DNA of 64,000 nt from a bacterium (GCA_030697705.1 JAUYPE010000002.1:4312-68311), one strand, 5' to 3'; counted from the stretch's first letter, positions 15,541-45,929 are shown. A program made the numbers and translations. The notes: a model not told the origin generated them from the letters alone.

Positions 15541-15630
15541 GTCATTCCGATCCGCCCTAGGCGGAGAGGAATCCCGCTAACATTCAGAATGCTGAAATCG
15601 TACGGGATTCCTCACTCTGTTCGGAATGAC
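15541..15630. repeat. MITE-like palindromic repeat, copy A (TIR gtcattccga...tcggaatgac)
   Basis: Perfect 10-bp terminal inverted repeats. Internal motif ctgaaatcgtacgggattcc shared with copies at 21928, 26232 and 45824. Lies just downstream of the 1206-aa surface protein gene. Confidence 0.7.
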
Positions 15631-15730
15631 GACCGAATAAAACACACTGGTATGATTCACATAAAACAAAAAGCCCTCGCCCGAAGACGGAGGACTTTTT
15701 GCTAGCCACAAGGAAGCTATGAGTATCGCG

Positions 15731-18700
15731 TTACTTGGAGATCGTCTGGGGAGACATCTCTGTTGCTGGCAATCCGGGCAAGAGGTAGCCGTTCAACCAG
15801 TCATTCGTGGTAGTTGCCGATGTCGTTGTAGAGTTCGGCGACCATACGAAGTTACTGCTTGATGCCGTGCTACTCCCTACCGCGAGCGTATCTTGCGAAA
15901 TACCACCCATGTTACCGCTACCCTCGCTCGTTCCCGTACCACCCAACATTGTAGAGAGTGTTGGGAAGAAGACACTGTCACCCACAAGAGCCACCGTGAT
16001 GGAGTCCCCTGTTGTGGTACGCGCAACAGTACCAACCAACTTGAAGTAGCGCGTCGTCCCGGCAGGAACATTGATCGCCTCTGAATTCGGTGCGGACGCA
16101 CTATTCGTCACCGGATCAAAGAAGACCGATATATTCGTGGTGGATGCGGCAACATTCGTATTGGCAGTACATGCCTGGGCGGTAGCAGTCTGGAGCGACC
16201 AAGAACCGACACAGTTAACGGCGTTCGCGTTGATCGGATTAGCAGCATACGCCGCCGTGGAGAACGCTGAATCGGTGTACGCGAAAACTTTAAAGGCCGA
16301 TGTTGTTGCAATTGATGTGGAGGAGATGCGGAAGGTAAACTTGTACAGTCCGATATCTCCATCCGTCGGCGCCGTCACGCTGAAGCGATACAGATCCATG
16401 GCCGTGTTGGAGAGCGTGTTTGTCGGCAAGGCCAATGAAGCAAGTGTCGGATGTGCCTTTACCAGACGGATACCCTTCGCCGCCGTATGGGATCCGAGAG
16501 CCGTGTCAATCGTCGTACCGGACGACTGACCGATACCTTTGGCAAGCCCCCTTCCGTCATAGTCAAGAACGATCAGATGACCGGAGTCAGCACCGTTTGT
16601 CGCCGCCTTACCCAAAGGTCCGCTTGTTCCCGCCGCAATAAGATCAACTTTAACGGTCAAGAGCTTATCAGCATCCTTTGGAACAATGAAGTCACTCGTC
16701 AGCGTTGAGGTTGCCTGGAAAATGCCGTTCTGGAAGGTCGCATTACCAACCTTCGTTGCGCCATCCCACAACGATACATTATTCACATCGGTCGTGGAAG
16801 CCGTAGCGGTAGCCATTACCAAGGTGAATTTCGTGAGCTTAATCGCCTCATTATCAGCGTGCAATTTGAACACGGTGGCAAGAACATCCGTCTTACCCGC
16901 CGTTCCAAAGCGCTCTGAAGGAGATGAAGCATCCAAAGTAACCGTCAGTACTCCGCCCGTCTTTATCGTCATCGTCTGACCAGCACTCGTTGTGACCGTC
17001 TCCGTTACCGTCACTCCCGTATCTTTCCCCACAACCGTCGTATCGTTGTTTGTTGAGGTAAGACCGATAGAGAATGTTCCGTTTGACTGGGCACCCGAAG
17101 TAATATTGCACTTCACATCAACCGTCTTGCTCGTTCCTTTCGGAACAATCAGCTGATTGTCAAGTGTGAAGGTCGCCGCCGCTTCGGAAGTAGACGAATC
17201 CGGGTTAATAACATTGGAACCCGTGTTCAATGCTAGTGTGCCGTCAAACATCTGACAATTGTTGAGCTGGTTTGCATTCGCGCTTGCACCCGGAGTAATA
17301 CCAACCTTCTGGGCGGTTACGCGAACATCCTCTCCCGCATTAGACGCATCGTAGATGAGTCGGGCGAAGAGAAAGCCATTGATACCGCGAACTACGGACT
17401 GCGCCGAGGGCGTTCCCGAGACGGAAACCGAAAGCTTTGCCGTCTTAACCGTCTGAATGTTTGCAGAAACCGCAACAGACGGGGTCGGGGTAACCGTCAA
17501 ACCAGTCGTTTGACCGCGCGCCGTTATGTTTGACGCCGTCGTACTCGCCTGCAAGGTATCCTCGGCCTCAAAGTCAGTCGTCAGCTTACCTTTAATGGTA
17601 AAGACATGGTAACCAACAGGCACTGTCCATGTATCAGTGAAGGTGACCGTCTCATCCGAACCGACATCTTTCGGTCCGGCGACGATCACGCCGTTCTCAT
17701 TGAAGATTGCCACATTGTCAATCTGCGTTCCATCCTCGGCACTGTCGGTCAGTGAGAAGACGAGGGGGAAGGAGGTAATCTGAATCTCCTCGCCTTTTGC
17801 CTCAAAGCCGAAAGAACCAAGAGAGGTGTTGGATACGCTGACCGCAACATTCCCTGCGGGAATAGCATTGTTTTTCTCTACGCGAAGCGTACCTTTTGAG
17901 ATCGTGTGATCATACGCGTCGTAGTAGGGCTCCGCGCTGGAGAATGCTCCCGTGTCATCGGTCGGATCGCTTGTTCCGTTCGCGGGAATAATGACATAGC
18001 CAAATGTCTTACCGCGCGCTACGACATCCGTTCGGCGCTGGACATCAAAGTCAACCGTGCGAGCGGACCCGGAAATAATATCCGTCTTAATTGCAAGATC
18101 CATCGTGTCTCCCTTGGCAAACTCAATGCTTGGGGAGAATTTCGCGACATAGAACTTACCATCAGATGAAACAGCCGTCGGGTAATCAACTCCTTTCACA
18201 TTCACCACTACATTGCCGAGGTCGCCCGAAGCAGCAGACCCTGACTGATACCATCGTATCTGCTCCAAGAGCAACGGCTCCGCCGAACCAACCGTCCAGC
18301 GAGCACCCGATGCTACGAAGGCCTTTGTGCCAACCTCAAGAGCGGATCGTGCTGCTCCCGGATCCAACGCACCGCGCTGGGGTGAGGCAAGCGTACCGAT
18401 CGTCAGCGTTTCGTTAATAGTGAAACCATTGCCGACGATGGGAAGCGGTCCGCTTACCACAGCCGTACCAGCATCAATTGCCGTTACCGCAAAACTTACT
18501 ACTTGACCGCCGTTTGAACCGGCCGCAGGACGATTGAAGGCAATCGTCATCGTCTGTGTCGTTCCTTTTGCAATCGTGAACGACTGGCTCAATTTTGCTT
18601 CATGGTTCGCGTTAAGCGTCTTGGAAAGCCCAATCTGGCTTCCCGTTGAATCCAAGAGGACAACGCCATCAACGGAGCTGTCGTCCGCTAATCCCTGCCG

Positions 18701-19351
18701 TTGTACCGTGATGCTCTGCACGACGACATCACCGTCATTGGAAGCGGTCAGAGTAATGTTCGTCGCCGGAATGCGCGAGGCATTAAACGGAGCCAAAGCC
18801 GAAGCTGGCTGGGCTGGCGAGGTTACCGTCAAGCCCGTTCCTGTTCCTACCGCCGTCGTTGTAGTTGTAGGAGGAGGAGTAGGAGTTGTCGTGGTTGTCG
18901 TAGTCGTGGTTGTGGTCGTACTTGTCGTCGTTGACATTGACGCAAATTTCGCTCGAGATATTGGACCGAAATATCCCGCCGTCGGCGAGACGCCGTTTGC
19001 CGCCTGCCATGCCGACACCGCCGTCCTTGTTATCGGACCGAAGTACCCCGTCGCTCCACCTGAATAGGTGAAGAGACCCGCTGCTATCAGCGTCTCCTGA
19101 AGACAGGTGACATCTGCACCGCGCGAACCAATCGTCAGATCACGCGTAAAGGTACAGTTGCTTGCAGATGTGCTACTGGAACCGGATTTGAGCGCGGCAA
19201 GCTGTTTTGTAAGTTCAGCCACCTGCGCTGTTAACTGATCAATAAGATCCTGCGTCGTAACTTGTGCTACCGCCACAAACGGAACGAACGCGGCCGCACC
19301 CGAAAGTGCCAGCGCGGTCGCCACCGCCGCGACTCTGAATTTGATACTCAT
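15731..19351 (-). CDS. large secreted surface protein (1206 aa) with PG_binding_1 domain and poly-Thr linker
   Basis: Signal peptide, coiled-coil (LIDQLTAQVAELTKQLAALK), PG_binding_1-like CTFTRDLTIGSRGADVTCLQETL...GYFGPITRTAVSAWQ, T-run TTTSTTTTTTTTTTTTPTPPPTTTTT, then ~1000 aa beta-rich repeat region. Confidence 0.65.
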   Translation of the reverse strand: MSIKFRVAAVATALALSGAAAFVPFVAVAQVTTQDLIDQLTAQVAELTKQLAALKSGSSSTSASNCTFTRDLTIGSRGADVTCLQETLIAAGLFTYSGGATGYFGPITRTAVSAWQAANGVSPTAGYFGPISRAKFASMSTTTSTTTTTTTTTTTTPTPPPTTTTTAVGTGTGLTVTSPAQPASALAPFNASRIPATNITLTASNDGDVVVQSITVQRQGLADDSSVDGVVLLDSTGSQIGLSKTLNANHEAKLSQSFTIAKGTTQTMTIAFNRPAAGSNGGQVVSFAVTAIDAGTAVVSGPLPIVGNGFTINETLTIGTLASPQRGALDPGAARSALEVGTKAFVASGARWTVGSAEPLLLEQIRWYQSGSAASGDLGNVVVNVKGVDYPTAVSSDGKFYVAKFSPSIEFAKGDTMDLAIKTDIISGSARTVDFDVQRRTDVVARGKTFGYVIIPANGTSDPTDDTGAFSSAEPYYDAYDHTISKGTLRVEKNNAIPAGNVAVSVSNTSLGSFGFEAKGEEIQITSFPLVFSLTDSAEDGTQIDNVAIFNENGVIVAGPKDVGSDETVTFTDTWTVPVGYHVFTIKGKLTTDFEAEDTLQASTTASNITARGQTTGLTVTPTPSVAVSANIQTVKTAKLSVSVSGTPSAQSVVRGINGFLFARLIYDASNAGEDVRVTAQKVGITPGASANANQLNNCQMFDGTLALNTGSNVINPDSSTSEAAATFTLDNQLIVPKGTSKTVDVKCNITSGAQSNGTFSIGLTSTNNDTTVVGKDTGVTVTETVTTSAGQTMTIKTGGVLTVTLDASSPSERFGTAGKTDVLATVFKLHADNEAIKLTKFTLVMATATASTTDVNNVSLWDGATKVGNATFQNGIFQATSTLTSDFIVPKDADKLLTVKVDLIAAGTSGPLGKAATNGADSGHLIVLDYDGRGLAKGIGQSSGTTIDTALGSHTAAKGIRLVKAHPTLASLALPTNTLSNTAMDLYRFSVTAPTDGDIGLYKFTFRISSTSIATTSAFKVFAYTDSAFSTAAYAANPINANAVNCVGSWSLQTATAQACTANTNVAASTTNISVFFDPVTNSASAPNSEAINVPAGTTRYFKLVGTVARTTTGDSITVALVGDSVFFPTLSTMLGGTGTSEGSGNMGGISQDTLAVGSSTASSSNFVWSPNSTTTSATTTNDWLNGYLLPGLPATEMSPQTISK

Positions 19352-20107
19352 AATGTATGCGTTAACTTTTCTTCATACGATACCCGTGCGCTTTCAGATG
19401 AGGTAAGCCCCTCTGCAACCACCGCAGGCACCGCATGTCGGAAACCTCTTTTCATCTTCCGCAGTTGCAGATGATGAAAGAGCTTTCCTTGCCATGGGAA
19501 CGCTCGTTTTTTATCTGTCGACGTCTAAATGGCTAATAATGGGTTCAGATAAGAAAACGGGCGTTAACTAACTTCAATGTTTAATGACCTAACCGAAGCA
19601 ATGGAGCCATGTCGTTTCTTCTCGCCTCCATCACTTACCATTCGCATGAGCGAATATGAGGTGAAGTGGCAAGGAATCGACCCGACCTAAACTCCAGATA
19701 AATATCTTGGTAATTTGATAAGGGAATGATTGCGCACCCCCTGTTCTTAAATTTTCAAAGTACGGTCATGCGGCGACACCAGCGAACAATACTCTCTCCT
19801 TTCCCCTATTGCAAATCGGATGTGAACGAAGACGGGAAAACAAACTCCTCGCTCGCATCAGATTTTCAACCTTTTAACGAGAGAAACCAACCAAAAAGGC
19901 GTTTTTTCGGCGGCACATAAAGCACTAAAACAAACCACATTACTTGCAAGTATAACTCATCATCCTGTTACCACAAGGAGAGTTTTCCACAAGGGATTTC
20001 AAGGTCATCCACAAGACACACGGTACTCTGGGTAAGTATAGACCGATATGCGCAACTCATCAAACGGACACCATGTGGAAAACTTTTTCACGCCTCCTCC
20101 GGACATA

Positions 20108-20983
20108 TTATTTCTCCTTCAGCACGCTTTGAAGATACTCCTGAAACTCTCCACCGACCTCCTGGTGCGCTATGCCAGCCGCCACGGTAGCTTTCAGAAA
20201 ACCGAGCCGGTCGCCACAGTCGTAACGCGTACCTTCATACAGATATCCATAAATCTCGCCGCCGCTTCTCATCCGCTCCTCCATCGCCACAATATCATGG
20301 AACTCTCCCGATTCGGGCCGATTCGCCCGCTCAAGAAATTCTAGAATATCAGGGGTAAGGATGTAGCGCCCTATCCGTATGATATCCGACGGAGCGTCTT
20401 CCACGCGCGGCTTTTCAACAACTCCTTCAACTTTGTACAATCGCGGTGAAATCTCACTTCCTTTTACCACGCCATACCGCGAGAGCGTTTCGGGCGGCAT
20501 GCGCGTCAGTGCCAACACCGGAGCCCGATAGCGTTCATAGATCGGCATCAATTGCGCCAGGCATGACTCGCGTCCCATCACCAAATCATCTCCGTAAAAA
20601 ACTGCAAACGGTTCGTCGCCGATAAGATGCCGTGCGGCCAAGAGAGCATCCCCCGTTCCGCGTTGCTCATGCTGGCGGACAAAAGTAAACGTCGCCATCT
20701 CTGCGATCCGGCGGACATCATCCGCAAGATGTCCTTTATTGTGTTGTCGCAGAAAGGCCTCCAATTCTCCCGCAACATCAAAATGATCTTCCAACGATCG
20801 TTTCGCTCGGGATGTCACGAGTATAATCTCTTTTATCCCCGCGTCAACCGCCTCTTCCACCAAATATTGAATAACCGGCTTATCTACAAGCGGAAACATC
20901 TCTTTTGGTTGTACCTTTGTCGCCGGCAAAAATCTTGTGCCCAAGCCCGCAACCAAAAATACCGCTTTTTTAACAATACTCAT
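20108..20983 (-). CDS. galU: UTP--glucose-1-phosphate uridylyltransferase
   Basis: KAVFLVAGLGTRFLPATKVQPKEMFPLVDKPVIQY N-terminus typical of GalU; 291 aa. Confidence 0.85.
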   Translation of the reverse strand: MSIVKKAVFLVAGLGTRFLPATKVQPKEMFPLVDKPVIQYLVEEAVDAGIKEIILVTSRAKRSLEDHFDVAGELEAFLRQHNKGHLADDVRRIAEMATFTFVRQHEQRGTGDALLAARHLIGDEPFAVFYGDDLVMGRESCLAQLMPIYERYRAPVLALTRMPPETLSRYGVVKGSEISPRLYKVEGVVEKPRVEDAPSDIIRIGRYILTPDILEFLERANRPESGEFHDIVAMEERMRSGGEIYGYLYEGTRYDCGDRLGFLKATVAAGIAHQEVGGEFQEYLQSVLKEK

Positions 20984-21053
20984 AGATCTTATTTGTAAGA
21001 TGTCCTCTCTATAATAAATGTCCTAAATAATGTCCTTTATTTGAATTTATGTC

Positions 21054-21815
21054 CTATATATCACCGCCTGAAATCTCGTACAGGGCACCCTTTTTATCTC
21101 CCTCTCGCAGTATAATCTTTCGCTCCAAAAGATCTTGCAAATCACGCTGGATCGTCTTCACGCTTACTCCTGAAAAATGAGGCGTGAGATCGCCAAGCTT
21201 CGCCTGTGTAGCTTTTTTGAGAACGGCAAGTATCTCCTCTTGGCGGCTCGTCAGCCCTTCCGGTTTTTTATCAAAAACGCTATGCAACTTTTCTCTTATC
21301 TTTGGAGATGGTGGGACATGCGCGGAAACGGAGGGTTTCTTTTCTCCATAATCCTTTTTTTTCTCCTCACTTTTTTGCGATGATGATTTTACCGCAACGG
21401 ACTGTTCCAGTATAGACCCATCCGCAGGTGCATGGAAAGAGTCGGTGACCGAGGTACCCTTTTCAGGCGTGAGTTCATCCAAAAAATCAGAAAGCATACC
21501 CGCTAACGCCCGGTACTCCCGTTCAAGAACGGTAATGTTAACAGCCCTGACAAACACCAAAGAACGGGCGATTTTGAGATATCCCAAAATCGTCTCAACC
21601 TTCCCGCATACGCCAAGCAGTACTCCTTCGACATAATCCGCAAAGGCAGCTTCAGCAATACCGGCAAAAACACCGTTTGCCGATTCGCGGAGCGCGCGGC
21701 GCAGAACCTCATCGCGCGGAAAAAAATCCGTCACGCGATAAAGCGCCAGCGTCACTTCTATCGCCCTTTTGTGAAGTTCATAGGGCACCTGCATGCCCCG
21801 AAAGTTGGCAGCCAT
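21054..21815 (-). CDS. four-helix-bundle (23S rRNA IVS-protein-like) domain fused to C-terminal winged-HTH domain
   Basis: N-terminus FPRDEVLRRALRESANGVFAGIAEA resembles the four-helix-bundle/IVS protein family. C-terminus LTSRQEEILAVLKKATQAKLGDLTPHFSGVSVKTIQRDLQDLLERKII is DeoR-like HTH. Lys/Glu-rich linker. Confidence 0.45.
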   Translation of the reverse strand: MAANFRGMQVPYELHKRAIEVTLALYRVTDFFPRDEVLRRALRESANGVFAGIAEAAFADYVEGVLLGVCGKVETILGYLKIARSLVFVRAVNITVLEREYRALAGMLSDFLDELTPEKGTSVTDSFHAPADGSILEQSVAVKSSSQKSEEKKKDYGEKKPSVSAHVPPSPKIREKLHSVFDKKPEGLTSRQEEILAVLKKATQAKLGDLTPHFSGVSVKTIQRDLQDLLERKIILREGDKKGALYEISGGDI

Positions 21816-21927
21816 AATGCAAACAAGAATGAAATTTTTTTAACCTCAAGCGACAACAGCATATAAGACATCAGTCCTTTCGTCAACTAAAGATAAAGGA
21901 CATTGGTATGCTTTATGCGCATTATCT

Positions 21928-22010
21928 GTCATCCTGAACGAAGTGAAGGATCCCGTACGATTTCAGTATACTGATATAGTAGCGGGATTCCTCGTTTCAC
22001 TCGGAATGAC
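21928..22010. repeat. MITE-like palindromic repeat, copy B
   Basis: gtcatcctgaacgaagtgaagg...cgtttcactcggaatgac with internal ggatcccgtacgatttcag; in the divergent intergenic region between 21054-21815 and nth. Confidence 0.7.
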
Positions 22011-22076
22011 GGAATGGGGTGGGACGAATAAACTCCATTGCCTCTCACTCCTACCCCTAGTACAATAGAATCCTCC

Positions 22077-22805
22077 ATGATGATGAAAAAAAATCAATTT
22101 TCTCGCGCACAAAAAATCGTCACCGCGCGAGGCCGCGCCATTATCCGCCGGCTCAAAAAAACATACCCACACGCGGGTATGATGCTGAACTTCTCCAGCC
22201 ACTGGGAGCTCCTCGTCGCCGTCATTTTATCGGCACAGTGCACGGATAAAAAAGTAAATCAGGTAACGGAAAAGTTATTCCAAAAATACCGAACTTTAGA
22301 GGACTATATCGCCGCCGATCCGCGAGAGTTTGAGCGCGATATTCATGCGACGGGATTTTTTCGGTCTAAGACAAAACATATTCTCACGACGGCAAAGTTG
22401 ATAAAAGAAAAATATAATGGCAAAATTCCCCGGACGATGGAGGAGATGCTCACGCTCCGCGGCGTTGCGCGCAAGACGGCAAATGTCGTTCTTGGCAACG
22501 CACACAATATAGTAGACGGCATTGCCGTAGATACGCATGTCCGCCGCCTCTCACAACGCCTAGGACTTACGACCAAAAACGATCCCAATAAAATAGAGCA
22601 GGATCTCATGAAAATCCTGCCTAAAAACGAATGGTTTAAAACGACCTATTTACTCATAGAACACGGCCGCAGTATCTGTACCGCAAAAGACCCCCGTTGC
22701 GACCTCTGCCCCCTCCGTGATATCTGCCCCTCGGCATTTCAGTTTCCAAGGTTTAAAAAAGATGATGCGAGACAAAAAAATTGCACTACTCCCCAAGGGA
22801 AGTAG
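22077..22805 (+). CDS. nth: endonuclease III (DNA-(apurinic/apyrimidinic) lyase), [4Fe-4S]
   Basis: LNFSSHWELLVAVILSAQCTDKKVN, HhH (LRGVARKTANVV), C-terminal CTAKDPRCDLCPLRDIC cluster motif. The ORF-track frame opens at 22038; start chosen at MMMKKNQ. Confidence 0.85.
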   Translation: MMMKKNQFSRAQKIVTARGRAIIRRLKKTYPHAGMMLNFSSHWELLVAVILSAQCTDKKVNQVTEKLFQKYRTLEDYIAADPREFERDIHATGFFRSKTKHILTTAKLIKEKYNGKIPRTMEEMLTLRGVARKTANVVLGNAHNIVDGIAVDTHVRRLSQRLGLTTKNDPNKIEQDLMKILPKNEWFKTTYLLIEHGRSICTAKDPRCDLCPLRDICPSAFQFPRFKKDDARQKNCTTPQGK

Positions 22806-22828
22806 TGCAAGAACTCGCGAAGAACAAA

Positions 22829-23302
22829 TCACTTTTCAACTTCCTTGTAGGTCTCGGCAAACTCTCTAGCGGCAATGAGATAGGGTTCATTTCCTCTTTT
22901 TTCCCCGTTTTGGTCGCAGATATCGGCAATCAAAACATTCTCATCGCCGGTTTGCGGCTCGCCCCATTCCGCCATAATCTCAATCGGCTTACCGAATGGG
23001 TTTCTTATGGCACGGCAGTAAGCTCTTGCCCCATAGACACCTTGTTCGTCAGTCGAATCATAGCGACCCAGAAACTTCGCTTCAGAGATGGCGTATTCTT
23101 CGCCGGACGGATTCGTTACAATCCAATCTCCGTCCTTGGCGGTATTAGTCGTCTCCTGCGCGCCACTTTGCAGAGTCGTCGTGATATTCTCGCCTGCTAC
23201 TGCCGGCCGTGCATGCACGCGGCCCTGTTTTTTGAACACGGGCGCGGTTGCGAGAGCTGTCATAATCTCCGGCGCTTTGCGGTCTACTTTTGTGAAGACC
23301 AT
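22829..23302 (-). CDS. hypothetical protein
   Basis: Start placed at MVFTKVDRK because it has an aaaaggag SD 7 nt upstream. The longer ORF-track frame would run through repeat copy F. Confidence 0.4.
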   Translation of the reverse strand: MVFTKVDRKAPEIMTALATAPVFKKQGRVHARPAVAGENITTTLQSGAQETTNTAKDGDWIVTNPSGEEYAISEAKFLGRYDSTDEQGVYGARAYCRAIRNPFGKPIEIMAEWGEPQTGDENVLIADICDQNGEKRGNEPYLIAAREFAETYKEVEK

Positions 23303-23404
23303 TTCTGACTCCTTTTCTTGATTAACTCCGCTAAATAACTCTCGGTTCATAATACTATAGTTATTTAATAATGTCAACTCCTTGCCATGTATCCTCCCCC
23401 ACAC

Positions 23405-23480
23405 TGTCATTGCGAGGAACAGCAGTGACGAAGCAATCTCAACTTTTGGCATAGAGATTGCCGCGCTTCGCTCGCAATGA
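23405..23480. repeat. palindromic repeat, copy F (variant subfamily, TIR gtcattgcgagg...ctcgcaatgac)
   Basis: Perfect 11-bp TIR plus internal cgaagc/gcttcg palindrome; immediately downstream of the clpB stop (possible terminator hairpin). Confidence 0.55.
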
Positions 23481-23506
23481 CGAGTAGGAGCATTTTACTA
23501 AATGTG

Positions 23507-26179
23507 TCAACTCTTCGCCGTTATTGCAACGCGGGAGGGAAGTCTTTTGACCTGTTTTGAGAATGAAACAACATCATCGCGGACATCAGCGAGAAGCGAT
23601 TCGCCGTCCACTATTTTATTTGCGATAAGCTCGCCCGCAAGCGGGTCAAGAATGTATTGCTGAATCGCCCGTTTGAGCGGCCGCGCACCGTATTGCGGGT
23701 CATACCCCTTCGTGCCGATGAATTTTTTGAGTTCTGACGTAAAGGCGATGGTAATATCCCGCGCAACTATGCGGCGGCGCACCATTTCAAGCTGAATATC
23801 CACGATGCGCTGAATTATCTCAACTCCCAAAGATGAGAAGATGATAATCTCATCCAGACGATTCAAAAATTCCGGACGGAAGTGACGCTCCAGCGCTTTA
23901 CGAATCTTGTCCCTCATGCTTCCTTCTTTCTCCTCATGCGTGTCCTCGCCAGAACCCGCAAAACCGAGCCGCCCCATTTCTTTGACATACTCGCCGCCAA
24001 TATTGGAGGTCATGATGATAATCGTGTTTTTGAAATTCACCACACGACCCTTGGCATCCGTGAGTCGGCCGTTATCAAGAATTTGCAAGAGAATGTTAAA
24101 CACCTCTGGATGAGCTTTTTCTATCTCGTCAAAAAGAATGACGGAGTACGGACGGTGGCGCACGAGTTCGGTCAGCTGACCACCCTCTTCATAACCGACA
24201 TAACCGGGCGGCGAGCCGACGAATTTGGAGGCGGTGTGACGCTCCATATATTCGCTCATATCCATGCGGATAAGCGCTTTTTCATCGCTGAACAAAAACC
24301 CGGCGAGCGTCTTGGCAAGCTCGGTCTTCCCCACACCCGTCGGTCCGAGAAACATAAACGACCCAATGGGGCGGTTTTCTTCACTGATACCTGCACGCGA
24401 TCGGCGCACCGCGTGGGCGATCTTGGTAATCGCTTCGTCCTGACCGATAACGCGAAGCCGCAGTTCGTCCTCCATGCGGATGAGGCGAGACATCTCGGTC
24501 TCCAGCATCTTGGTAACGGGAATGCCCGTCCAGCGCGCAACGACGGCGGCGACATCCTCCTCCCCCACCTCGCCGCGCGGCGAAGATCGCGTATGCTGAA
24601 GCGCGGTGAGCCGCTCCTCAACTTCTTTTAATTTTTTTTCGGTCTGGGGAATCTTGCCATAACGGTACTCGGCAACCGCGCCGAACTCTCCCGAGCGCTC
24701 GGCAATATCGGCTTCCTGCCGGAACGAATCAAGCTCTTTTTTGAGCGTACGCACTTCAACAAGTCGCTCCTTCTCCTCCTGCCATGCCGATTCTGACGCC
24801 GCAATGCCCGCCTGCAGTTCCGTAACATCCTTTTCCACTTTTTTGAGCCGTTCTTTGGCACGGCGGTCGGTTTCTTTTTTCAATGCCTCGCGTTCAATTT
24901 CAAGCTTCATAATGCGCCGACGCGTCTCGTCAAGCTCCTTGGGAATACTGTCCATTTCCAATCGTAACGAAGACGCCGCCTCATCAATCAAGTCCACGGC
25001 TTTGTCGGGCAAAAATCTATCGGCGATATAGCGCGCCGAGAGGTTCGCCGCCGCAATTAGTGCGCCATCGGTAATTTTAATCCCATGGTGCGCTTCGTAT
25101 TTCGGCTTGAGTCCGCGCAAAATCGCCACAGCATCCTCCACGCTCGGCTCGTCCACATACACCGGCTGGAATCGCCGCGCAAGCGCCGGATCGCGCTCAA
25201 TATGGCGCTGATATTCGCGCAGGGTGGTAGCACCGATAGCATGAAGCTCACCGCGCGCGAGCGCCGGTTTGAGCATATTTGCAGCATCAATCGCGCCCTC
25301 CGCCGCACCCGCACCAACAAGCGTGTGCAGTTCGTCTATGAAAATAACATACTTGCCCGCCCCGCGCTCTATTTCCCGCAGTATCGCCTTCAGCCGATCT
25401 TCAAACTCGCCACGGTATTTCGTCCCGGCGACAATCGCCGCCAGATCAATGGAAATGACTTCTTTTTCTTTTAATGTCTCGGGTACATCGCCTGCAACAA
25501 TCCGCTCGGCAAGCCCCTCAACGATGGCGGTCTTGCCCACGCCTGCCTCGCCTATGAGGACGGGATTGTTTTTGCTCCGGCGCGAGAGTACCTCCATGAC
25601 GCGGCGAATTTCGGCATCCCGCCCGATGACGGGGTCAAGTTTCTCCGCCCGCGCGAGGCGGGTGAGGTTCTTGGCGTATTTTTCCAAAACATTATACTTC
25701 GTTTCCGGTTCGGCATCGGTAATCCGCTGACCGCCGCGAAGTTCCGCCAGCGCACGCATGACAACTTCTTTATTTAACCCTTCACGCTCCAAAAGCTCTT
25801 TGGCACGCGTCGGTATCTCCAGGAGAGCGAGAAAAAGATGCTCCGTGGAGATGAATTCATCTTTGAGATGCGCCGCCTCGCGGTGTGCCTGCTCAATGGA
25901 CTTCGCCAAGTCCTGCGTGAGATACACCTGCCCCATCGGCGTAGAAACCGAAGCGCCGCGCGGCATCCCGTCAAGCGTTTCAAATAAGCGATCCATAAAC
26001 GCCGAGATGTCAATCTCCAATTTTTCCAAAATCGCGTCAACCGTCCCCTCCTCTTGCAAGGCAAGGGCGGCAAGCAAATGGAGCACATCAATCTGTTGAT
26101 GTGAGCGTTCAAGCGCCAAGTCATGCGCTTTTTTGAGCACCTCTTGAGCTTTTATCGTAAATTGTTGGAATGGCGGCAT
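23507..26179 (-). CDS. clpB: ATP-dependent chaperone ClpB
   Basis: Clp N-domain; two AAA+ modules ([30 protein letters not shown]); long coiled-coil M-domain between them; no ClpP-binding loop. Start at [15 protein letters not shown] (26179). Confidence 0.9.
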
Positions 26180-26231
26180 AGATATAAATAATAACGAGAG
26201 CAATGTTTAAGTTGTTTTCTTTTCTTTGTTT

Positions 26232-26358
26232 GTCATTCCCGTCCCCGCTTTTGCGAGGATAAACTCCGCGAGGAATCCCGTTAGTTTTCAGTCCCCACAA
26301 GGGGGATACTAGCTATATGCTGAAATCGTACGGGATCCTTCGCTACGCTCTGGATGAC
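26232..26358. repeat. MITE-like palindromic repeat, copy C (longer variant)
   Basis: gtcattcccgtcc...tgctgaaatcgtacgggatcc...tggatgac; sits in the clpB upstream region. Confidence 0.65.
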
Positions 26359-26673
26359 GGACGATAGAGAAGACCGAAACCTAGACCCTATTTGCTTTAA
26401 TATCTTATCAGAAAACAGAGACAAAATCAAACAAAAACGCCTATTACTTCAAAATAAGAGTATTGGATGAAGTTAGAACCACCCCCCTATATTTTCCCAA
26501 TAAAAACTGAAACGAGATACGCTGTCATTGTGGAAACAACGCTGGACTTTCTAACATATTAGCTTTCCACGCTCAATCTTCAATAATCTCGCCTCAATGT
26601 CCTTTAGTGAGGAGGGTCCGGAATAATCAAGAACATATTCATCTTTCGATTTTTGTTTTATTTCCATTTTCCA

Positions 26674-33132: not shown

Positions 33133-33242
33133 GTCATCCCGAACGGAGTGACTGCCAGCAGGCGTCCCGTGAGGGAGGGATCCCTCACAGCTTCAGTATA
33201 AACTGAATGTTAACGGGATTCCTCGCTCACGCTCGGAATGAC
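33133..33242. repeat. MITE-like palindromic repeat, copy D
   Basis: gtcatcccgaacggagtgactgccagcaggcgtcccgtgagggagg...ctcgctcacgctcggaatgac. Its first ~45 nt are near-identical to the reverse complement of copy E (45824-45929). Abuts the SOD ribosome-binding site. Confidence 0.75.
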
Positions 33243-33972: not shown

Positions 33973-35097
33973 CTACCCATAATACTTCTCCTTGTAGAAT
34001 CTGATCAACTGTTCAACTTCCGTGATAATTTCGGGCGAGCCGACGCCGACTTTGAGTTTTTTCTGCACCGTCTCCAGATCAACCGCGCCCTCAAGCACCG
34101 CCTCTTCTATGTCTTTGTCGGTAATGTTGAGTTTGACATCAATCACCTTCGCTCCCTCTATCATAACCCGTTCGTTCTGATTTGTCCTGCGAAAATAATC
34201 ATTCGCCGCTTTGCGAAACGCCTTGTCCGCCAAAACAGAACAGTGAATTTTTCTATTTGGTAAACCACCCAACCGATCCATAATGTGCTGGGGTTTTATT
34301 TTTAATGCTTCGCCCAAAGGCAGGCCGCCGTTTTCCGTTACCATAACCGAAAACATAGATGTCGCCGCAATCGCCGAACCGCAGCCAAAAGTTCTCCATT
34401 TCATCTCCGCGACTTTTTCGGTTTGCGGTTCAATTTTTAGCCACATCTTCATCATATCGCCGCAATTATGGACAAGAAACGCACTCGTCGCGTAGGTATG
34501 AGAGTCTGCAACTTCAAAATTATACAGTCGTCCACCTTCAAACGACATAGTCTCTACATGCTCAATCGGTAGCTCAATGTGGTGACGCTCCCCCACAACC
34601 GGATAAAGGCAAATATCTTTCGCCTTAAGATCTCCGGCATGCGCCCATGTAATAGGCGCATATGCGTTCGATTCAGACATATATTGCTTTGCATAGATGA
34701 GATGGTCGGGTGTCGCAATAATTTCCCCTTGGAAATTCTTGATTTTTATGAGTGAACCCGCTTGATACCTCACACGAAACGCCTTCTCAACAGGATAGTA
34801 TCCAGAATCATGACTCAATACTTTTTCACCAACTTGAATGTTGGGAATCTCTTTCAGACCAGCCCCCGTCAACACTAATGTTTCAGGCGCAAGGCAGGCG
34901 GGCGAGCCGACCATCCCCGTCGCGTCATAAGCATTTTCATCCGGCTCCTCAAGCATGAGATTGCGCGGATTGAAAAAATGCTCTTTGACGATATCCGAAT
35001 AGTACCACCGCTCGCCGGTGAATTGGTTGACCACATCCCCCGCCGCGAGCCCCCCCTCGGGAATCGGTTTCTTTTCTTTAACTTTTTGATTATCCAT
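33973..35097 (-). CDS. IscU/NifU-type Fe-S scaffold protein interrupted by a mini-intein
   Basis: N-extein ...YSDIVKEHFFNPRN...GMVGSPA | intein | CGDMMKMWLKIEP...FGCGSAIAATSMF...LPNRKIHCSVLADKAF (IscU signature with all three Cys); C-terminal BFD/NifU-like tail without Cys. Confidence 0.8.
   Translation of the reverse strand: MDNQKVKEKKPIPEGGLAAGDVVNQFTGERWYYSDIVKEHFFNPRNLMLEEPDENAYDATGMVGSPACLAPETLVLTGAGLKEIPNIQVGEKVLSHDSGYYPVEKAFRVRYQAGSLIKIKNFQGEIIATPDHLIYAKQYMSESNAYAPITWAHAGDLKAKDICLYPVVGERHHIELPIEHVETMSFEGGRLYNFEVADSHTYATSAFLVHNCGDMMKMWLKIEPQTEKVAEMKWRTFGCGSAIAATSMFSVMVTENGGLPLGEALKIKPQHIMDRLGGLPNRKIHCSVLADKAFRKAANDYFRRTNQNERVMIEGAKVIDVKLNITDKDIEEAVLEGAVDLETVQKKLKVGVGSPEIITEVEQLIRFYKEKYYG
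34465..34896 (-). other. mini-intein (144 aa, no homing-endonuclease domain) inserted at the GSPA^CGD active-site Cys of IscU
   Basis: Block A CLAPETLVLT, block B GEIIATPDHLIY (TxxH), block F/G YNFEVADSHTYATSAFLVHN followed by +1 Cys (CGDMM). Confidence 0.8.
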
Positions 35098-35120: not shown

Positions 35121-35790
35121 TCTGTCATTCCCGACTTAATCGAGAATCTATGATTCCTATCTTGCGTCGTAAACGATATTAGAACCATATTCCATCTGCA
35201 AATTGGATCATTTTGCCCATGAGGACACCGCAAAAATTACCCAAAATGGGGGTAAAAGTGTGAAGATACCTATAACTACAGAGGGCAAGAGGTATAAAAG
35301 GTTAAGGAGTAGCTTGAGCTTTTTTCCGGTTAGATCACCAATCCTAATTTTTGCCCCATCTTTATAGTGCTTCAAGTTTTCTTTGAACTCATTATCAATG
35401 GACTCCGATAGATAAATGTACAAAGCAAGAAAAACTATAGCAGGAATCATCACAAGGGTAGCATAGGGAGCGACTCTTAAAAGAATGGGGTGTGGATAAT
35501 TGAATGTTTTGTATAACTCATTAAGCGTCGGATAAAGATAAAGATGAACATACAAAAGGAGCAAGCTATCCGCAATTGCAATAAAAAGTGCTACATTTTT
35601 TATACGCTTTAGCACCGTCCACGCCTTCTCTTTTTCTATAGTACGATTCCTACGCTTCATAGCTATTAATACGGATAGGATAGGGACCAGAATTAACAGG
35701 CCATATATATAGGAAGTACTCATAGTTTTTATTTACGATAACTTTATAAAATCCTCTGCTTCTGGATTCCCGCTTTCGCGGGAATGACAG
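35121..35790. mobile_element. segment bounded by a perfect 12-bp inverted repeat (ctgtcattcccg / cgggaatgacag) carrying a low-GC passenger gene
   Basis: IR arms at 35122-35133 and 35779-35790 share the gtcattcc TIR core of the MITE family. The enclosed membrane-protein gene is much more AT-rich than flanking nifS/iscU. Confidence 0.5.
35208..35723 (-). CDS. hypothetical 4-TM membrane protein (passenger within IR-bounded segment)
   Basis: ORF with 4 hydrophobic segments; AT-rich codon usage. Confidence 0.45.
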   Translation of the reverse strand: MSTSYIYGLLILVPILSVLIAMKRRNRTIEKEKAWTVLKRIKNVALFIAIADSLLLLYVHLYLYPTLNELYKTFNYPHPILLRVAPYATLVMIPAIVFLALYIYLSESIDNEFKENLKHYKDGAKIRIGDLTGKKLKLLLNLLYLLPSVVIGIFTLLPPFWVIFAVSSWAK

Positions 35791-39181: not shown

Positions 39182-39805
39182 TTATCTGTAGGAACGCGAT
39201 CGCCGCCGCCGGCGCCACCCCCGGACAAGCGGAAGCGCTCCGGGGAGCAGGGAGAGCGCGATAATACCGAGAACGATAGGCAGAAGATACCGGTCAATAT
39301 CGGGAATGACACTCCCTAAAAAATAGCCCACTACGGTCAATCCGGCGCCCCAAATGATTCCGCCGAGTATATTATAAAAAAGAAATGTGCCATAGGGCAT
39401 CTTGCCCACTCCTGCAATAATCGGCGCGAATGTACGGACTACCGGTATAAAGCGCCCGAATATAATCGCCCGCGGACCGTGCGTATCGTAGAATACTCCC
39501 GCCTTTTGCACATATTCGGGACGAAAAAAACGTGAACGCGGGCGCGTGAAAAGCCGCGCTCCAGCCCGCCGCCCGAACGCATAGCCGACATTATCACCCA
39601 GAATCGCCGCGACCGTGGCAAGCGTGGCAAGTGGAATGATTGCAAAAAATCCTTGAGCCGCGAGAAATCCGGCCGTAAAGAGCAAAGAGTCGCCCGGTAG
39701 CGCTACACCGATAAGCAGACCGGACTCGGCAAAAATCATGGCGAAAACACCAAGATATCCTCCCGCGGTGACAAGCGCCTCGACACTGATACCGAAGATA
39801 TTCAT
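39182..39805 (-). CDS. DedA/SNARE-associated family membrane protein
   Basis: FAESGLLIGVALPGDSLLFTAGFLAAQG DedA signature. Confidence 0.75.
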   Translation of the reverse strand: MNIFGISVEALVTAGGYLGVFAMIFAESGLLIGVALPGDSLLFTAGFLAAQGFFAIIPLATLATVAAILGDNVGYAFGRRAGARLFTRPRSRFFRPEYVQKAGVFYDTHGPRAIIFGRFIPVVRTFAPIIAGVGKMPYGTFLFYNILGGIIWGAGLTVVGYFLGSVIPDIDRYLLPIVLGIIALSLLPGALPLVRGWRRRRRSRSYR

Positions 39806-41070: not shown

Positions 41071-41190
41071 AAGAACTCTTGCATGCTCTCCCACGACATG
41101 GCAGCATGACTTCGTTAACAAAAGACCTCATCCATCGCGGGTGAGGTCTTTACAACAAAACAAAGCTGGTTCAAAAACACTCCGGAACTG

Positions 41191-41730
41191 TTACATCATC
41201 TGCTTCGGAGGCATCATCTCCTGCCCACCGGCATCCGGACTCTTTGATGGTACCGAACAAGTACGATAGAATTTGAAACCGATATAGAAGCCCCACAAGA
41301 CAACTGTACCAAAAAGATTCAAGAAGAAGTGAAGCCACGCTAAGTCAACGAAATTACCAAGAATACCAGGTGTTCCCTGCATGCCCGTCTGAAGATGCTG
41401 ATAATATTTAATGATATGTTCAAAGAAATGATAACTCTGGAGAATGGTCGCGAAGAAAAAAAGCTTGTAAAGAACTTTTTTATTCCTAGCTTCTTCCGGC
41501 AATCTTTGCAGGATAAGCCAGAATCCTAACGTGAACAGAAAGTCGTAAAAAAAGTGCACCGACTCAAGATCAAACTGACCGATTAACCCATGCGATCCGT
41601 CTATGCCAAGATCCAGGATGGCATACTGATAGATAATGGTGAAGTGTTCCATCATGTGCGCCGTCTGCGTAATAAGAACGATTCCATAAATAGCACAGAA
41701 CATACCTATGCTTTTATTTTTCATAATCAA
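41191..41730 (-). CDS. small membrane protein with two HxxEH motifs (paralog 1)
   Basis: HMMEHF and HFFEHI motifs in predicted TM helices; ~60% identical to the 42159-42689 product; shares a 100% identical ~95-bp tract. Confidence 0.5.
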   Translation of the reverse strand: MIMKNKSIGMFCAIYGIVLITQTAHMMEHFTIIYQYAILDLGIDGSHGLIGQFDLESVHFFYDFLFTLGFWLILQRLPEEARNKKVLYKLFFFATILQSYHFFEHIIKYYQHLQTGMQGTPGILGNFVDLAWLHFFLNLFGTVVLWGFYIGFKFYRTCSVPSKSPDAGGQEMMPPKQMM

Positions 41731-42158
41731 GAAAAAACACTTTTTATTTGGATAATTACATGTCTGATGTTAAGGATATCATGAAATTTTTTCCCCTGCC
41801 AAAAAAGTTATCCACAAGGAACAACAGGGACTGCCTACTAAGGGATGGGGGAACAGATTCGCGCGAGGGAAGCAGTCGTATGAAAGAGCGCATCTATCAC
41901 ACCGATGGACGACACGGGCACTACACCCATAAACGAATCTGCTGATGTACAGAAGCATTTCTACCAACCTTCCCTACCGGCTCATTCAAGAAATTCTTTC
42001 TTAATCATCTCTACATTTTTACTATTAACCCAAATTAGGGGAAACGAGTTTCAAAGAGATGGTGTACAAGAGGAGAACGCTAACAAAAATGAAAGGTCTC
42101 ATCCATTACGGATGAGACCTTTCTATAAACGCCGGTTCAGTAATATTCTGATACACGA

Positions 42159-42689
42159 CTACATCTGCGCTGGAGGCGTCATTTCCTGTTTGTCCATACT
42201 GAAACTTTTTGATTCCGCTGAGCAGGTGCGATGAAACTTAAGGCCTATATAGATAACCCACAAGATAACCGTACCGATGAGATTCAGAGTGAAATGGAAC
42301 AATATTAGGTTGATGTGGTTTCCCAGAAAACCGGGGGTTCCTTGCATACCCGTTTGAATATACTGATAATATTTAATGATGTGTTCGACCATGTGGTAGC
42401 TCTGGACAACGACCCCAAAGACAAGAAGATTATACAAGAATTTTGAGGAGTCCTTGGCTTCTTCCGGCAATCTTTGCAGGATAAGCCAGAATCCTAACGT
42501 GAACAGAAAGTCGTAAAAAAAGTGCACCGACTCAAGATCAAACTGACCGATTAATCCGTGCGCAGGATCCACGCCAATGGCATACTGATAAACTTGGACG
42601 ATGTGCTCCAACATGTGAACCGATTGCACGATAAGCGTGAAACCGAATAGAGCACAGAACATACCTATACTTTTATTTTTCATAATCAA
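42159..42689 (-). CDS. small membrane protein with two HxxEH motifs (paralog 2)
   Basis: HMLEHI and HMVEHI. Upstream 60 bp (tttttcataatcaagaaaaaacactttttatttggataattacatgtctgatgtt) is duplicated with paralog 1. Confidence 0.5.
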   Translation of the reverse strand: MIMKNKSIGMFCALFGFTLIVQSVHMLEHIVQVYQYAIGVDPAHGLIGQFDLESVHFFYDFLFTLGFWLILQRLPEEAKDSSKFLYNLLVFGVVVQSYHMVEHIIKYYQYIQTGMQGTPGFLGNHINLILFHFTLNLIGTVILWVIYIGLKFHRTCSAESKSFSMDKQEMTPPAQM

Positions 42690-43391
42690 GAAAAAACACT
42701 TTTTATTTGGATAATTACATGTCTGATGTTGATGTTAAGGATAGCATGAAATTCATGTGCTCGCTAAAAAAGTTATCCACAAGGGATACTAATGCTCATC
42801 CGCCGGAGTTCTATGAAACCTTTTTCTCTATTGGCTCATGCTCAACTCCAAAATCTCCCGCCAAACAGGATAAGAGTTTCCAATCGTCAAAACGGCGAAC
42901 CGTTTCGACCCGCATTTTCCCCCTGCCTGTGTCATAAATACTTTCGGGCCGTGGGGTTTTCTATAAGAAACACTAAAGTTTAAGGAACCCATATCTGAAA
43001 CATGGTATAGAACCAGTGCCAGCTAGCGGAGAGGCCAATTAATATGGCAGTCGCGATCAAAATATTTCTTAAGCTAAACATAAGAGTTGAGGAAGCCCCA
43101 TTATGAGCTTCACTGAAGAAGTTAGTGTAAGTTAATTGCGTGCCGCACTATTTTTTGTGAGATATGAGACGTATGACCCGATCACCCGTGGGTGATCTAC
43201 GCACATATCACCTGCACCAGTATACCACAAAAACACGGCATCTTGGTAGAAGCACACAAACACAAGGGAACTATTTTGAGTAAGAAGACCGCGGAGGCGC
43301 TGGACTGCATGAGGACCACTTTGGTGCGAAAAAGGTCTCTTTCTTCCTTCAACAAAGGCCCTTTTTGATTTCATCCCTCATGCTACCGCTC

Positions 43392-44035: not shown

Positions 44036-44106
44036 CTGCGGGACTAGGATTCGAACCTAGATTAACGGATTCAGAGTCCGTCGTCCTACCGTTAGACGAT
44101 CCCGCA
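44036..44106 (-). tRNA. tRNA-Gln (anticodon CUG)
   Basis: Cloverleaf folds by hand: acceptor UGCGGGA/UCCCGCA, D-stem GUCU/GGAC, anticodon stem ACGGA/UCCGU with loop CUCUGAA, T-arm CUAGG-UUCGAAU-CCUAG. U1-A72 is typical of bacterial tRNA-Gln. Confidence 0.8.
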
Positions 44107-44138
44107 AATATTATGCTGACATTTCTCCCCCGATAAGA

Positions 44139-44161
44139 GAAAAAGCGTCACGAATGACGCT
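44139..44161 (-). terminator. rho-independent terminator
   Basis: Minus-strand hairpin agcgtca-ttcg-tgacgct followed by TTTTT; downstream of 44208-44864. Confidence 0.55.
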
Positions 44162-44207
44162 TTTGACTATAGCACGGGAAGGAAGGATTTCAACCTTTCT
44201 CCTCCGC

Positions 44208-44864: not shown

Positions 44865-44901
44865 CTACTTATATGATAATACTATTTTTTATTTATGTCA
44901 A

Positions 44902-45810
44902 CTATACTTTCAGATATCGGCGAACGGCGAATACGCTGGAGAGTGAACCGAGGATGACGCCAAACGCGGCGAGAAGCCCAAAGAACTGGAGAAAATTGGC
45001 AGCAAAATAATGATAAAGGTCAAATGAGGGCACCAGAAGAAGTAGCTTGGGTGCGATCAGCCAGGTAATCGGGAGGAAGGCGAGCACCGTCGCGACGGCG
45101 GCAACCACGCCGTAGAGCACCCCGTTCACTAGAAACGGCCCGCGGACAAACCACGAGGTGGCGCCGACGAGGCGCATGATGCTGATTTCTTCGCGCATGG
45201 TAAAAATGGCGATGCGAATGGTATTAAACGCCACAAGCACGGCGATGAAAGCGAGAAAGAGCGCTATCAATGCTCCCCCACCCCGCACGGAGGCAAGAAT
45301 AGAGGAGAGGCGATCAATGACCGTTTGATTCTCAAAATAATTAATTTTCTCTACAATCGGATATTTTTTATTTACCAAAAAATCGCTGATGGCGGCGTAG
45401 TGCCTCGGATCCGTCGCACGGATATTAATACTCGCCTCCAGCGGATTCTCACCCACCTCCTGCAAGGCGGAGGCGATGAGTGCGTTATCCTTGTGCGCCT
45501 CCTGAAATACCGCAAGCGCGGCGTCACGGGAGACGAAGGTGACGGCTTTAACGTCGGGTAGTTTTTCCACATCTTGTTTGACCGCAAGCATTTGGTCGTC
45601 CGTCGCGCCCGGCATGAAGTAGACGGTAATATCAATCTTTTGCTCAAGCGAGGTGATAACGGAGTTCATCAGCGCGTTCACAAACAACAAACTCCCCATG
45701 ACGAAGAGCGTCAACGCCATGACCATAATAGTCGCCATAGAAAGCCAGCCATTGCGCCAGAAGCTGACGAGACCCGCATGAATTGTCCGTTTGAGGGTAG
45801 TGAAAAGCAT
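44902..45810 (-). CDS. ftsX: cell division ABC transporter permease FtsX
   Basis: FtsX N-terminal pattern (TIHAGLVSFWRNGWLSMATIMVMALTLFV), periplasmic domain, 3 C-terminal TMs. Confidence 0.8.
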   Translation of the reverse strand: MLFTTLKRTIHAGLVSFWRNGWLSMATIMVMALTLFVMGSLLFVNALMNSVITSLEQKIDITVYFMPGATDDQMLAVKQDVEKLPDVKAVTFVSRDAALAVFQEAHKDNALIASALQEVGENPLEASINIRATDPRHYAAISDFLVNKKYPIVEKINYFENQTVIDRLSSILASVRGGGALIALFLAFIAVLVAFNTIRIAIFTMREEISIMRLVGATSWFVRGPFLVNGVLYGVVAAVATVLAFLPITWLIAPKLLLLVPSFDLYHYFAANFLQFFGLLAAFGVILGSLSSVFAVRRYLKV

Positions 45811-45823
45811 AGATTATTATTCT

Positions 45824-45929
45824 GTCATCCCGAGCAGAGCGAGGGATCCCGTACGATTTCAATATACTAGTATTGACGGGATTCCTCCCTCACAGGACGC
45901 CTGCTGGCAGTCACTTCGTTCGGAATGAC
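45824..45929. repeat. MITE-like palindromic repeat, copy E, in the ftsE-ftsX intergenic region
   Basis: gtcatcccgagcagagcgagggatcccgtacgatttcaatatac...cgttcggaatgac. Reverse complement matches copy D over ~45 nt. Fills most of the 147-bp ftsE/ftsX spacer. Confidence 0.75.

Follow-up and report, generated by a model that had tools for sequence, protein, structure and literature searches.

The 64,000-nt stretch of DNA analysed here (GCA_030697705.1 JAUYPE010000002.1:4312-68311, one strand, read 5' to 3', and called the window throughout) belongs to a Sungbacteria-like Patescibacterium, an ultra-small groundwater bacterium, and between several of its genes lies a family of short palindromic repeats. 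An original prediction, made from the sequence, had described these repeats as a family resembling miniature inverted-repeat transposable elements (MITEs), with six full copies (A to F) and two solo ends near 35122 and 35779. All six copies are present at the positions given for them, copy F being shifted by 1 nt (23406-23481 vs 23405-23480), and both solo ends exist, at 35124-35148 (+) and 35762-35788 (-). The repeats are built from one kind of unit, in which a (T/C)GTC tag is followed by a palindrome starting with AT and then by a C-initiated tail, an order that is kept in 14 of the 14 units of the window. These units, twelve of them dimer arms and two of them solo, span 15.5-46 kb and are all intergenic. 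The units, and the open reading frame (ORF) that lies between the two solo ones, are as follows.

15541-15630, copy A: tags-outward (head-to-head, HH) dimer; units 15541-15573 (left, +, CGTC) and 15606-15630 (right, -, CGTC), 32 nt apart
21928-22010, copy B: HH dimer; units 21928-21952 (left, +, TGTC) and 21986-22010 (right, -, CGTC), 33 nt apart
23406-23481, copy F: HH dimer, ATTGC/GCAAT subtype; units 23406-23438 (left, long, +, TGTC) and 23456-23481 (right, short, -, CGTC), 17 nt apart
26232-26358, copy C: HH dimer; units 26232-26277 (left, +, TGTC) and 26334-26358 (right, -, CGTC), 56 nt apart
33133-33242, copy D: HH dimer; units 33133-33182 (left, +, CGTC, containing a nested hairpin) and 33217-33242 (right, -, TGTC), 34 nt apart
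35124-35148 (+), degenerate solo unit: TGTC-ATTCC...AGAAT-C, with one basal-stem mismatch; flanks the 171-aa ORF
35208-35723 (-), 171-aa predicted membrane-protein ORF, bracketed by the two solo units with their tags outward; lies between nifS and nifU
35762-35788 (-), canonical solo unit GTCATTCCCGCGAAAGCGGGAATCCAG, preceded by a T at 35789: perfect 8-bp stem, GAAA loop, CCA tail
45824-45929, copy E: HH dimer; units 45824-45848 (left, +, TGTC) and 45880-45929 (right, -, CGTC), 31 nt apart

The placements reported earlier (on the 5' side of sod, between ftsE and ftsX, on both sides of clpB and after the large gene) agree with the gene coordinates. Copy A follows the terminator-like hairpin (15673-15688) of a 1206-aa gene, and copy B, in the gap between two divergent genes, has a promoter-like site on either side (21886-21858, minus strand; 22038-22066, plus strand). 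Copy C is located 28-52 nt upstream of the clpB-like ORF (23507-26203), and copy F, 25 nt past the stop codon of clpB, lies upstream of a promoter-like site (23377-23349). Copy D occupies 110 of the 132 nt between a ferredoxin gene and sod (Pfam assignments), and the 10 nt from its end to the sod ATG contain GAGGA, while copy E occupies 106 of the 147 nt of the ftsE-ftsX spacer. The string GTCATTCC is found 11 times in the window against 2.07 expected, a count reached in 0 of 100 shuffles. Under a strict definition (tag, 5-bp closing stem and tail), which skips the right arm of copy C and the degenerate solo unit because of one basal-stem mismatch in each, 12 units are counted, where 200 dinucleotide shuffles gave 1.56 on average and never more than 6. 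A stretch of galU at 20798-20829 (GACATCCCGAGCGAAACGA) also resembles a unit; it encodes the conserved GalU motif VTSRAKRSLEDHF and was set aside as a chance look-alike that motif scans pick up.

Each arm of a copy is a hairpin by itself, and the copies are dimers of such units, a feature missed in the earlier description. In most arms a stem ATYCY is followed by GA, by a variable distal stem with a 3-4 nt loop, by a second GA and by RGRAT, as in the unit TGTC ATCCT GA AC GAA GT GA AGGAT CCC. Short arms consist of 5 bp, the GA/GA pair and 2 bp closing a loop of 3-4 nt, which makes 9 stem positions only if GA/GA is counted. The distal stem is longer or carries nested inserts in the left arms of A, C and D and in the right arm of E, and the left arm of F is also long; in the left unit of A it is extended to TCCGCC/GGCGGA, and that of C has an extra insert, the spacer of the same copy holding a small hairpin of its own. 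The tail reads CCC in the arms of A to E, CTC in F and CCA in the solo unit at 35762-35788. In every one of the six dimers the tags point outward, and the spacer measures 17-56 nt. The variant represented by copy F fits a wider unit formula, AT-Y-C/G-Y ... R-G/C-R-AT followed by C; here the change from ATTCC to ATTGC is found in 4 of the 4 half-stems (ATTGC/GCAAT instead of ATTCC/GGAAT), and such a four-way compensatory change shows pairing within each arm in addition to pairing between the two arms. As single-stranded DNA (ssDNA), the dimers are predicted to fold at -15 to -32 kcal/mol, with z scores of -3.3 to -9.4 (A, -32.1 kcal/mol, z -9.4; B, -15.1, z -3.3; C, -24.2, z -4.2). The canonical solo unit gives a predicted hairpin of -9.0 kcal/mol (z -5.8) and the degenerate one a weak fold of -2.4 (z -1.4).

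Some copies are related more closely to one another than the common unit requires. Copy D had been described as a near reverse complement of copy E over about 45 nt, and the match proves longer, with 92% complementarity over 53 nt between the left arm of D and the long right arm of E, which share the same nested insert. The internal motif GAAATCGTACGGGATCC, reported as common to A, B, C and E, is present in all four, with one mismatch in A. These four copies have in common an arm-specific spacer motif, CCCGTACGATTTC, found in no other locus examined except the same-strain contigs L001-L003, and the spacer motif CCCGTACGATTTCAG was not found in any other locus, making it lineage-specific. The confinement of a shared spacer motif to the contigs of this strain indicates that A, B, C and E share a recent origin within the lineage.

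The unit itself is widespread. A scan of 185,579 genomes, one per species, with the pattern GGGATYCYTC-N7-TCRGRATGAC returned at least 120 stretches, and the unit is present in at least 11 phyla with almost the same sequence and next to unrelated genes. The figures in this paragraph for other genomes hold among the matches listed. The phyla are Acidobacteriota, Chloroflexota, Patescibacteria, Bacteroidota, Bacillota, Proteobacteria, Verrucomicrobiota, Gemmatimonadota, Elusimicrobiota, Hydrogenedentota and Binatota, and cultured Flavobacterium, Pedobacter and Bacteroides are represented. The scan pattern leaves three stem pairs free, and across 59 distinct units these show Watson-Crick pairing 57, 56 and 56 times, vs about 30 expected; each free pair has one G-T and one or two C-A combinations. 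This symmetry between G-T and C-A, with no tolerance of G-U, argues for selection on a DNA hairpin and not on an RNA made from one strand. Immediately 5' of GTC, 107 of 140 units have T and 27 have C, and conservation ends abruptly at this base. An inverted partner, giving a total length of 56-249 nt, accompanies 69 of 145 units; roughly half lack any partner within 250 nt. A reading of the CUGA...GAA core as a hammerhead-like or K-turn structure was rejected on inspection, as the conserved hammerhead positions are absent and the covariation is strand-symmetric.

Other collections yielded less. A consensus dimer had no blastn match in 72,556 plasmids, and among viral contigs the motif was found in only 37 stretches, none of which encodes a relative of the nuclease described below. 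Searches against Rfam, both at gathering thresholds and at E = 10, matched only tRNAs, and a full-text literature search for 10-19-mers of the repeat returned primer coincidences only. Two clustered arrangements resembling BIMEs were also seen: about 20 units packed into 2.7 kb of Pedobacter frigidisoli (L069 1600-4350) around two GIY-YIG genes, one intact and the other disrupted, and a 125-bp tandem array of three dimers in a Clostridiales metagenome-assembled genome (L081 5479-5755).

The only gene found to recur between such units encodes a single-domain GIY-YIG nuclease. In L006 (Gracilibacteria), L064 (Patescibacteria, in a unit-gene-unit arrangement) and L069 (Pedobacter), short ORFs of the GIY-YIG family (PF01541, E about 1e-16) are found next to units or enclosed by them. 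A metagenome scan with an alignment of these proteins gave 80 loci encoding a GIY-YIG protein of 93-100 aa. A tags-outward unit is present at most 250 nt upstream of the gene in 62 of the 80 loci, 67 of which extend that far, and a unit is present downstream in 64 of the 80, with 72 extending far enough; where there is enough sequence on both sides, units flank the gene on both sides in 55 of 59 loci. The background is 0.45 units per kb. The flanking units are of the ATYCY-GA...GA-RGRAT and ATTGC types seen in the window, together with units like the Neisseria NTS discussed below, and the ATTGC subtype of copy F flanks GIY-YIG genes in L146, L151, L154 and L162. An unbiased tabulation shows TGTC or CGTC before the palindrome and C after it. 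Besides PF01541, the flanked proteins have weak NCBIfam matches, and annotated homologues of the nuclease are found in other Patescibacteria lineages, among them Pacebacteria, Parcubacteria and Harrisonbacteria.

Two published descriptions fit this organization. A 28-nt sequence called NTS (CGTCATTCCCGCGMAVGCGGGAATCYRG) and the related SRMs (Ssn-related motifs) are bound and cut by SsnA, a GIY-YIG nuclease of 94 aa that acts on ssDNA only, being inactive on double-stranded DNA or RNA (Chenal 2025, Nat Commun, PMC11893778). Binding depends most on the C after the palindrome, while cleavage, a few nt 5' of the tag, is governed mainly by the three bases before the palindrome (GTC); SRMs typically bracket ssn genes, and in Neisseria SsnA lowers transformation (integration) by NTS-bearing DNA (PMC11893778). 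The window units resemble NTS and SRMs in their HGTC tag, in a hairpin starting with AT, in the C right after the palindrome, in their interspersed, multi-copy and intergenic distribution and, at other loci, in flanking single-domain GIY-YIG genes on both sides. The unit at 35762-35789 (-), which reads TGTCATTCCCGCGAAAGCGGGAATCCAG, matches the Neisseria NTS at 27 of 28 positions, a difference of the size that the authors allowed (one mismatch; PMC11893778), whereas the other 13 window units do not match it. The window arms differ from NTS and SRMs in their GA/GA-interrupted stem and in a distal stem that is variable and sometimes nested; moreover, the window copies are nuclease-less dimers with no ssn gene in the window, their subtype is known from sequence alone, and their host is a Patescibacterium, a group not mentioned in the text of PMC11893778, whose survey covered NCBI reference/representative RefSeq genomes.

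The second description is that of the superfamily of CGTC-tagged repetitive extragenic palindromes (REPs), whose tag is often TGTC and which include dRS3 of Neisseria and RPE-4 and RPE-6 of Rickettsia (Di Nocera, De Gregorio and Rocco 2013, BMC Genomics, PMC3733652). These REPs are known from Proteobacteria, Chlorobi, Bacteroidetes, Spirochaetes and Thermotogae; their stems of 8-9 bp open with A-T pairs at positions 1 and 2, their loops are of 4-5 nt and a 3-nt unpaired tail (consensus CCA) follows, and they occur mostly as intergenic HH dimers with spacers of 20-100 bp and with no dedicated transposase (PMC3733652). The window repeats share with them the CGTC/TGTC tag, the A-T stem opening, the 3-nt tail, the HH dimers (often heterodimers), the intergenic position, the nested or structured spacers and the absence of a flanking transposase. 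They differ in that only the solo unit at 35762-35788 fits the published stem and loop lengths exactly, the arms having 5 bp, GA/GA and a variable stem, and in that the arm tail is CCC and not CCA.

In the relatives that were compared, the elements are present, absent or of another subtype. An identical FtsX protein is encoded in GCA_034376815.1 and in two assemblies of sequencing runs, and its homologues come from Sungbacteria and other Patescibacteria; the strain itself is present in GCA_034376815.1 and in the runs SRR26726066 and SRR13727529, and copy E is identical in the same-strain contigs L001-L003. In two relatives with 95% FtsX identity (L124 and L125), the ftsE-ftsX spacer holds a dimer of the ATTGC subtype in place of copy E, and on the longer contig, L124, dimers of this subtype lie in three spacers, one of the two extra dimers being also present on L125. 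In more distant relatives, the ftsE-ftsX spacer is reduced to 3 nt (L126, a complete Sungiibacteriota genome, 62% FtsX identity) or 27 nt (L127, 63%); copy E is absent there, and no unit was found anywhere in the approximately 21 kb examined. The comparison of insertion sites with sister genomes that the original prediction had proposed thus finds copy E absent or replaced by another subtype. This pattern of presence, absence and subtype replacement implies that the elements are not conserved regulatory sites and that they are gained, lost or replaced quickly, and the presence of different subtypes at the same intergenic site in close strains points to recent activity.

The window repeats belong to the known kind of tagged DNA hairpin described as CGTC-REPs and NTS/SRMs. 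At a probability that we put at roughly 0.7, they are tags-outward dimers and two single units of this hairpin which derive from nuclease-bearing modules, have no nuclease of their own and would be sites for an Ssn enzyme wherever a cognate one is made. In the ssDNA state the unit would fold, and an Ssn protein (a single-domain GIY-YIG nuclease of about 94 aa) would bind the hairpin and cut a few nt 5' of the tag; the Watson-Crick-only covariation and the stable hairpins predicted for ssDNA support this indirectly. By analogy with the relation of REPINs to REP-RAYT-REP modules, the dimers may be nuclease-less derivatives of unit-ssn-unit modules. A dimer offers one correctly oriented unit on each strand, and a cut site would be expected at each of its outer boundaries. 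Spread and turnover within the lineage presumably follow a route involving ssDNA, and if the organism or a donor supplies a cognate Ssn, the dimers could act as sites of cleavage and as modulators of recombination. Where they are transcribed, as may happen to E inside ftsEX and to D before sod, the stable RNA hairpins are probably side effects.

Several points weigh against this interpretation. No ssn-like gene was found, either in the window (64 kb) or in the 47 kb of sequence from close relatives, and the cutting of the window's units by such a nuclease is a prediction from their sequence. A GIY-YIG nuclease is not known to have any means of copying such elements to new places. The flanked GIY-YIG proteins are only putative members of CDD family cd10448, and their nearest solved structures are of UPF0213 proteins (E = 1.9e-8). 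Alignments of filled and empty sites (ftsE-ftsX and the region upstream of a lipase gene) show spacers too diverged to give a clean empty-site junction. Lastly, the published SRM search pattern, HGTCWYN(0-2)YYVSBRHN(0-5)WNVSBRGN(0-2)RNCYNB, a heuristic drawn from 29 genomes and not a functional definition, matches only 1 of the 14 units, the solo one at 35762-35789; the 12 dimer arms, with their GA/GA interruption, and the degenerate solo unit fail. The pattern has one further, probably chance, match in a coding region at 39283-39311 (shuffle mean 0.39). The commonest subtype, with its GA/GA stem, thus escapes the published pattern, and pattern-based surveys therefore likely undercount the family.

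On this interpretation, the label MITE-like gives way to a more specific identity, that of recognition hairpins of Ssn single-strand nucleases. The label was right in that the repeats form a genuine family of non-coding, intergenic and palindromic elements, and it does not hold with respect to target-site duplication, found at none of the six copies, to transposase, none being recognised in the window or between the inverted pairs inspected, and to the unit, which also occurs singly. The suggestion that the copies could be recombination substrates comes close to the published role of the Neisseria members (PMC11893778). New with respect to the two published descriptions are the Patescibacterium host, the GA/GA-interrupted subtype, the finding of one subtype in place of another in relatives that are 95% identical, and the non-nuclease ORF between two units. 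For annotation, the family explains a class of spurious short ORFs and of long operon spacers in metagenome-assembled genomes.

A different explanation would place the primary function at the RNA level, the copies serving to terminate, attenuate or stabilise the mRNAs of neighbours such as sod, ftsEX and clpB. The minus strand is the coding strand of most neighbours, and on it the dimers are predicted to fold as RNA at -34 to -57 kcal/mol, with z scores of -4.5 to -8.4 (A, -51.4; B, -34.2; C, -53.3; D, -57.4, z -7.5; E, -46.7 kcal/mol); E is located within the ftsEX operon, D directly adjoins the ribosome-binding site of sod, and many REPs have been argued to be transcribed (PMC3733652). The covariation speaks otherwise, being Watson-Crick only, with G-T no commoner than C-A, a combination that RNA would not tolerate. 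No T-run follows any of the six copies as read from the sequence, and in the scanned stretch 15400-26500 none of A, B, F and C is called terminator-like. Copy B lies between divergent promoter-like sites, and the polarity of the dimers relative to transcription, as judged from the arm-specific spacer motifs, is mixed. The elements have no Rfam match even at E = 10 and are missing from the same operons in relatives, and SsnA does not bind the RNA form (PMC11893778). A primary role in RNA is therefore unlikely.

Mobilisation by RAYT proteins, of the IS200/IS605 Y1 HUH family, would make the dimers REPINs. The logic of the two systems is the same: tagged hairpins are recognised as ssDNA, form inverted dimers and cluster between genes, and a small gene associated with them is flanked by its own repeats, as in the GTAG REPs and BIMEs of gamma-proteobacteria, and the borrowing of such enzymes by CGTC REPs has been raised as a possibility (PMC3733652). 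The tag, however, is CGTC/TGTC and not GTAG, and the gene flanked at the 55 of 59 loci counted above encodes a GIY-YIG hydrolytic nuclease, in contrast to a HUH Y1 transposase with covalent intermediates. REPs are species-specific, whereas the present unit is nearly identical across phyla, and no RAYT gene flanked by CGTC repeats was found in the published survey (PMC3733652), although the present analysis made no systematic search for Y1 transposases. We consider mobilisation by a RAYT quite unlikely.

Classical MITEs would be deletion derivatives of insertion sequences (ISs) with a DDE transposase, in which 27-nt terminal inverted repeats are moved by cut-and-paste and leave target-site duplications. 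Much of the outward form agrees with this, as inverted-repeat termini begin with TG...CA in most copies, lengths of 76-127 bp are typical and relatives differ by presence and absence; bacterial MITEs such as Correia, RUP and Nezha are likewise intergenic elements of about 80-130 bp with terminal inverted repeats, occasionally co-transcribed with their neighbours. Yet direct repeats of 2-10 nt are absent from the flanks of all six copies, single units are common in the genome scan, and the arms are hairpins that covary internally, a property not required of a DDE terminal repeat. No parent IS with a DDE transposase came to light either. There is no recognisable transposase in the window and, as said, no match in plasmids. 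In the roughly 120 loci among the matches listed, 15 inverted pairs of units are 0.3-6 kb apart, and eight of them were inspected by reading translations, not by Pfam; seven hold ordinary genes (PRPP-synthetase-like, L9, DnaB-like) or unidentified ORFs, with no recognisable transposase among them, and in the eighth (L115) there is only a tangle of overlapping ORFs. A MITE origin thus appears very unlikely. As for an ancient shared operator conserved with its flanking genes, the recurrence of one motif before stress and division genes in the window could suggest it, but the orthologous ftsE-ftsX spacers of 3 and 27 nt are devoid of the motif, which in other phyla lies next to unrelated genes, so the idea, which the original prediction had named as its own refutation, retains practically no probability.

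The two solo units and the 171-aa ORF between them reproduce the unit-ssn-unit architecture with a different cargo. The ORF has no Pfam match, and a single other contig was found to encode exactly this protein, again in the same context. In L126 nifS and nifU are contiguous, and in the 95% relative L125 they are only 176 nt apart, with an unrelated palindrome and no 171-aa ORF between them. Hairpin pairs may conceivably bracket and move non-nuclease cargo genes, this ORF being the candidate, although we hold the proposal to be doubtful. If it were true, Ssn-type hairpins would constitute an ssDNA-based gene-cassette exchange system in ultra-small Patescibacteria, and nuclease-less dimers would mark sites of trimming or recombination of incoming ssDNA. 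Patescibacteria are thought to be dependent on DNA uptake.

Several families of intergenic palindromic elements appear to be common in this lineage. The palindrome that fills the nifS-nifU spacer of L125 (11164-11339) is of a third kind, GGAATTCATGCGTTCCCGAC...GTCGGGAACGCATGAATTCC. Within the window, a 159-bp imperfect palindrome with perfect 18-bp termini (AGACCTACTGCGTAATAA) lies at 58181-58339 between two minus-strand ORFs; it has one copy in the window and looks unrelated. A gene for a 23S-rRNA-intervening-sequence protein (PF05635, E = 1.6e-25) is located at 46641-47061, between prfA and ftsE, and is bracketed by 34-nt inverted repeats with 88% complementarity; the 95% relative has a different ORF, of 109 aa, at this place. 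A tie between the repeat family and such genes was considered and dropped, as the bracketing repeats are unrelated and the supposed strain polymorphism is a gene-calling difference.

The NifU/IscU gene beside the solo units (33973-35097, minus strand, 374 aa) contains a Hint-type insert, a mini-intein with a weak PT-HINT match. In the 95% relative (L125 11340-12715), NifU has 610 aa and a LAGLIDADG_3 match, and its insert is apparently a full intein with a homing endonuclease, while in more distant relatives (for example L126 19974-20639) the protein is without intein and has 221-223 aa. At 41390-42790, a tandem duplication of about 960 bp (81-93% identity in blocks of 120-160 nt) comprises two adjacent small paralogous ORFs on the minus strand. 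A 93-nt inverted match (72%) between 24068-24160 and 51981-52073 joins the clpB-like gene with a second Clp/AAA+ gene on the opposite strand, and it represents paralogous coding sequence, not a repeat.

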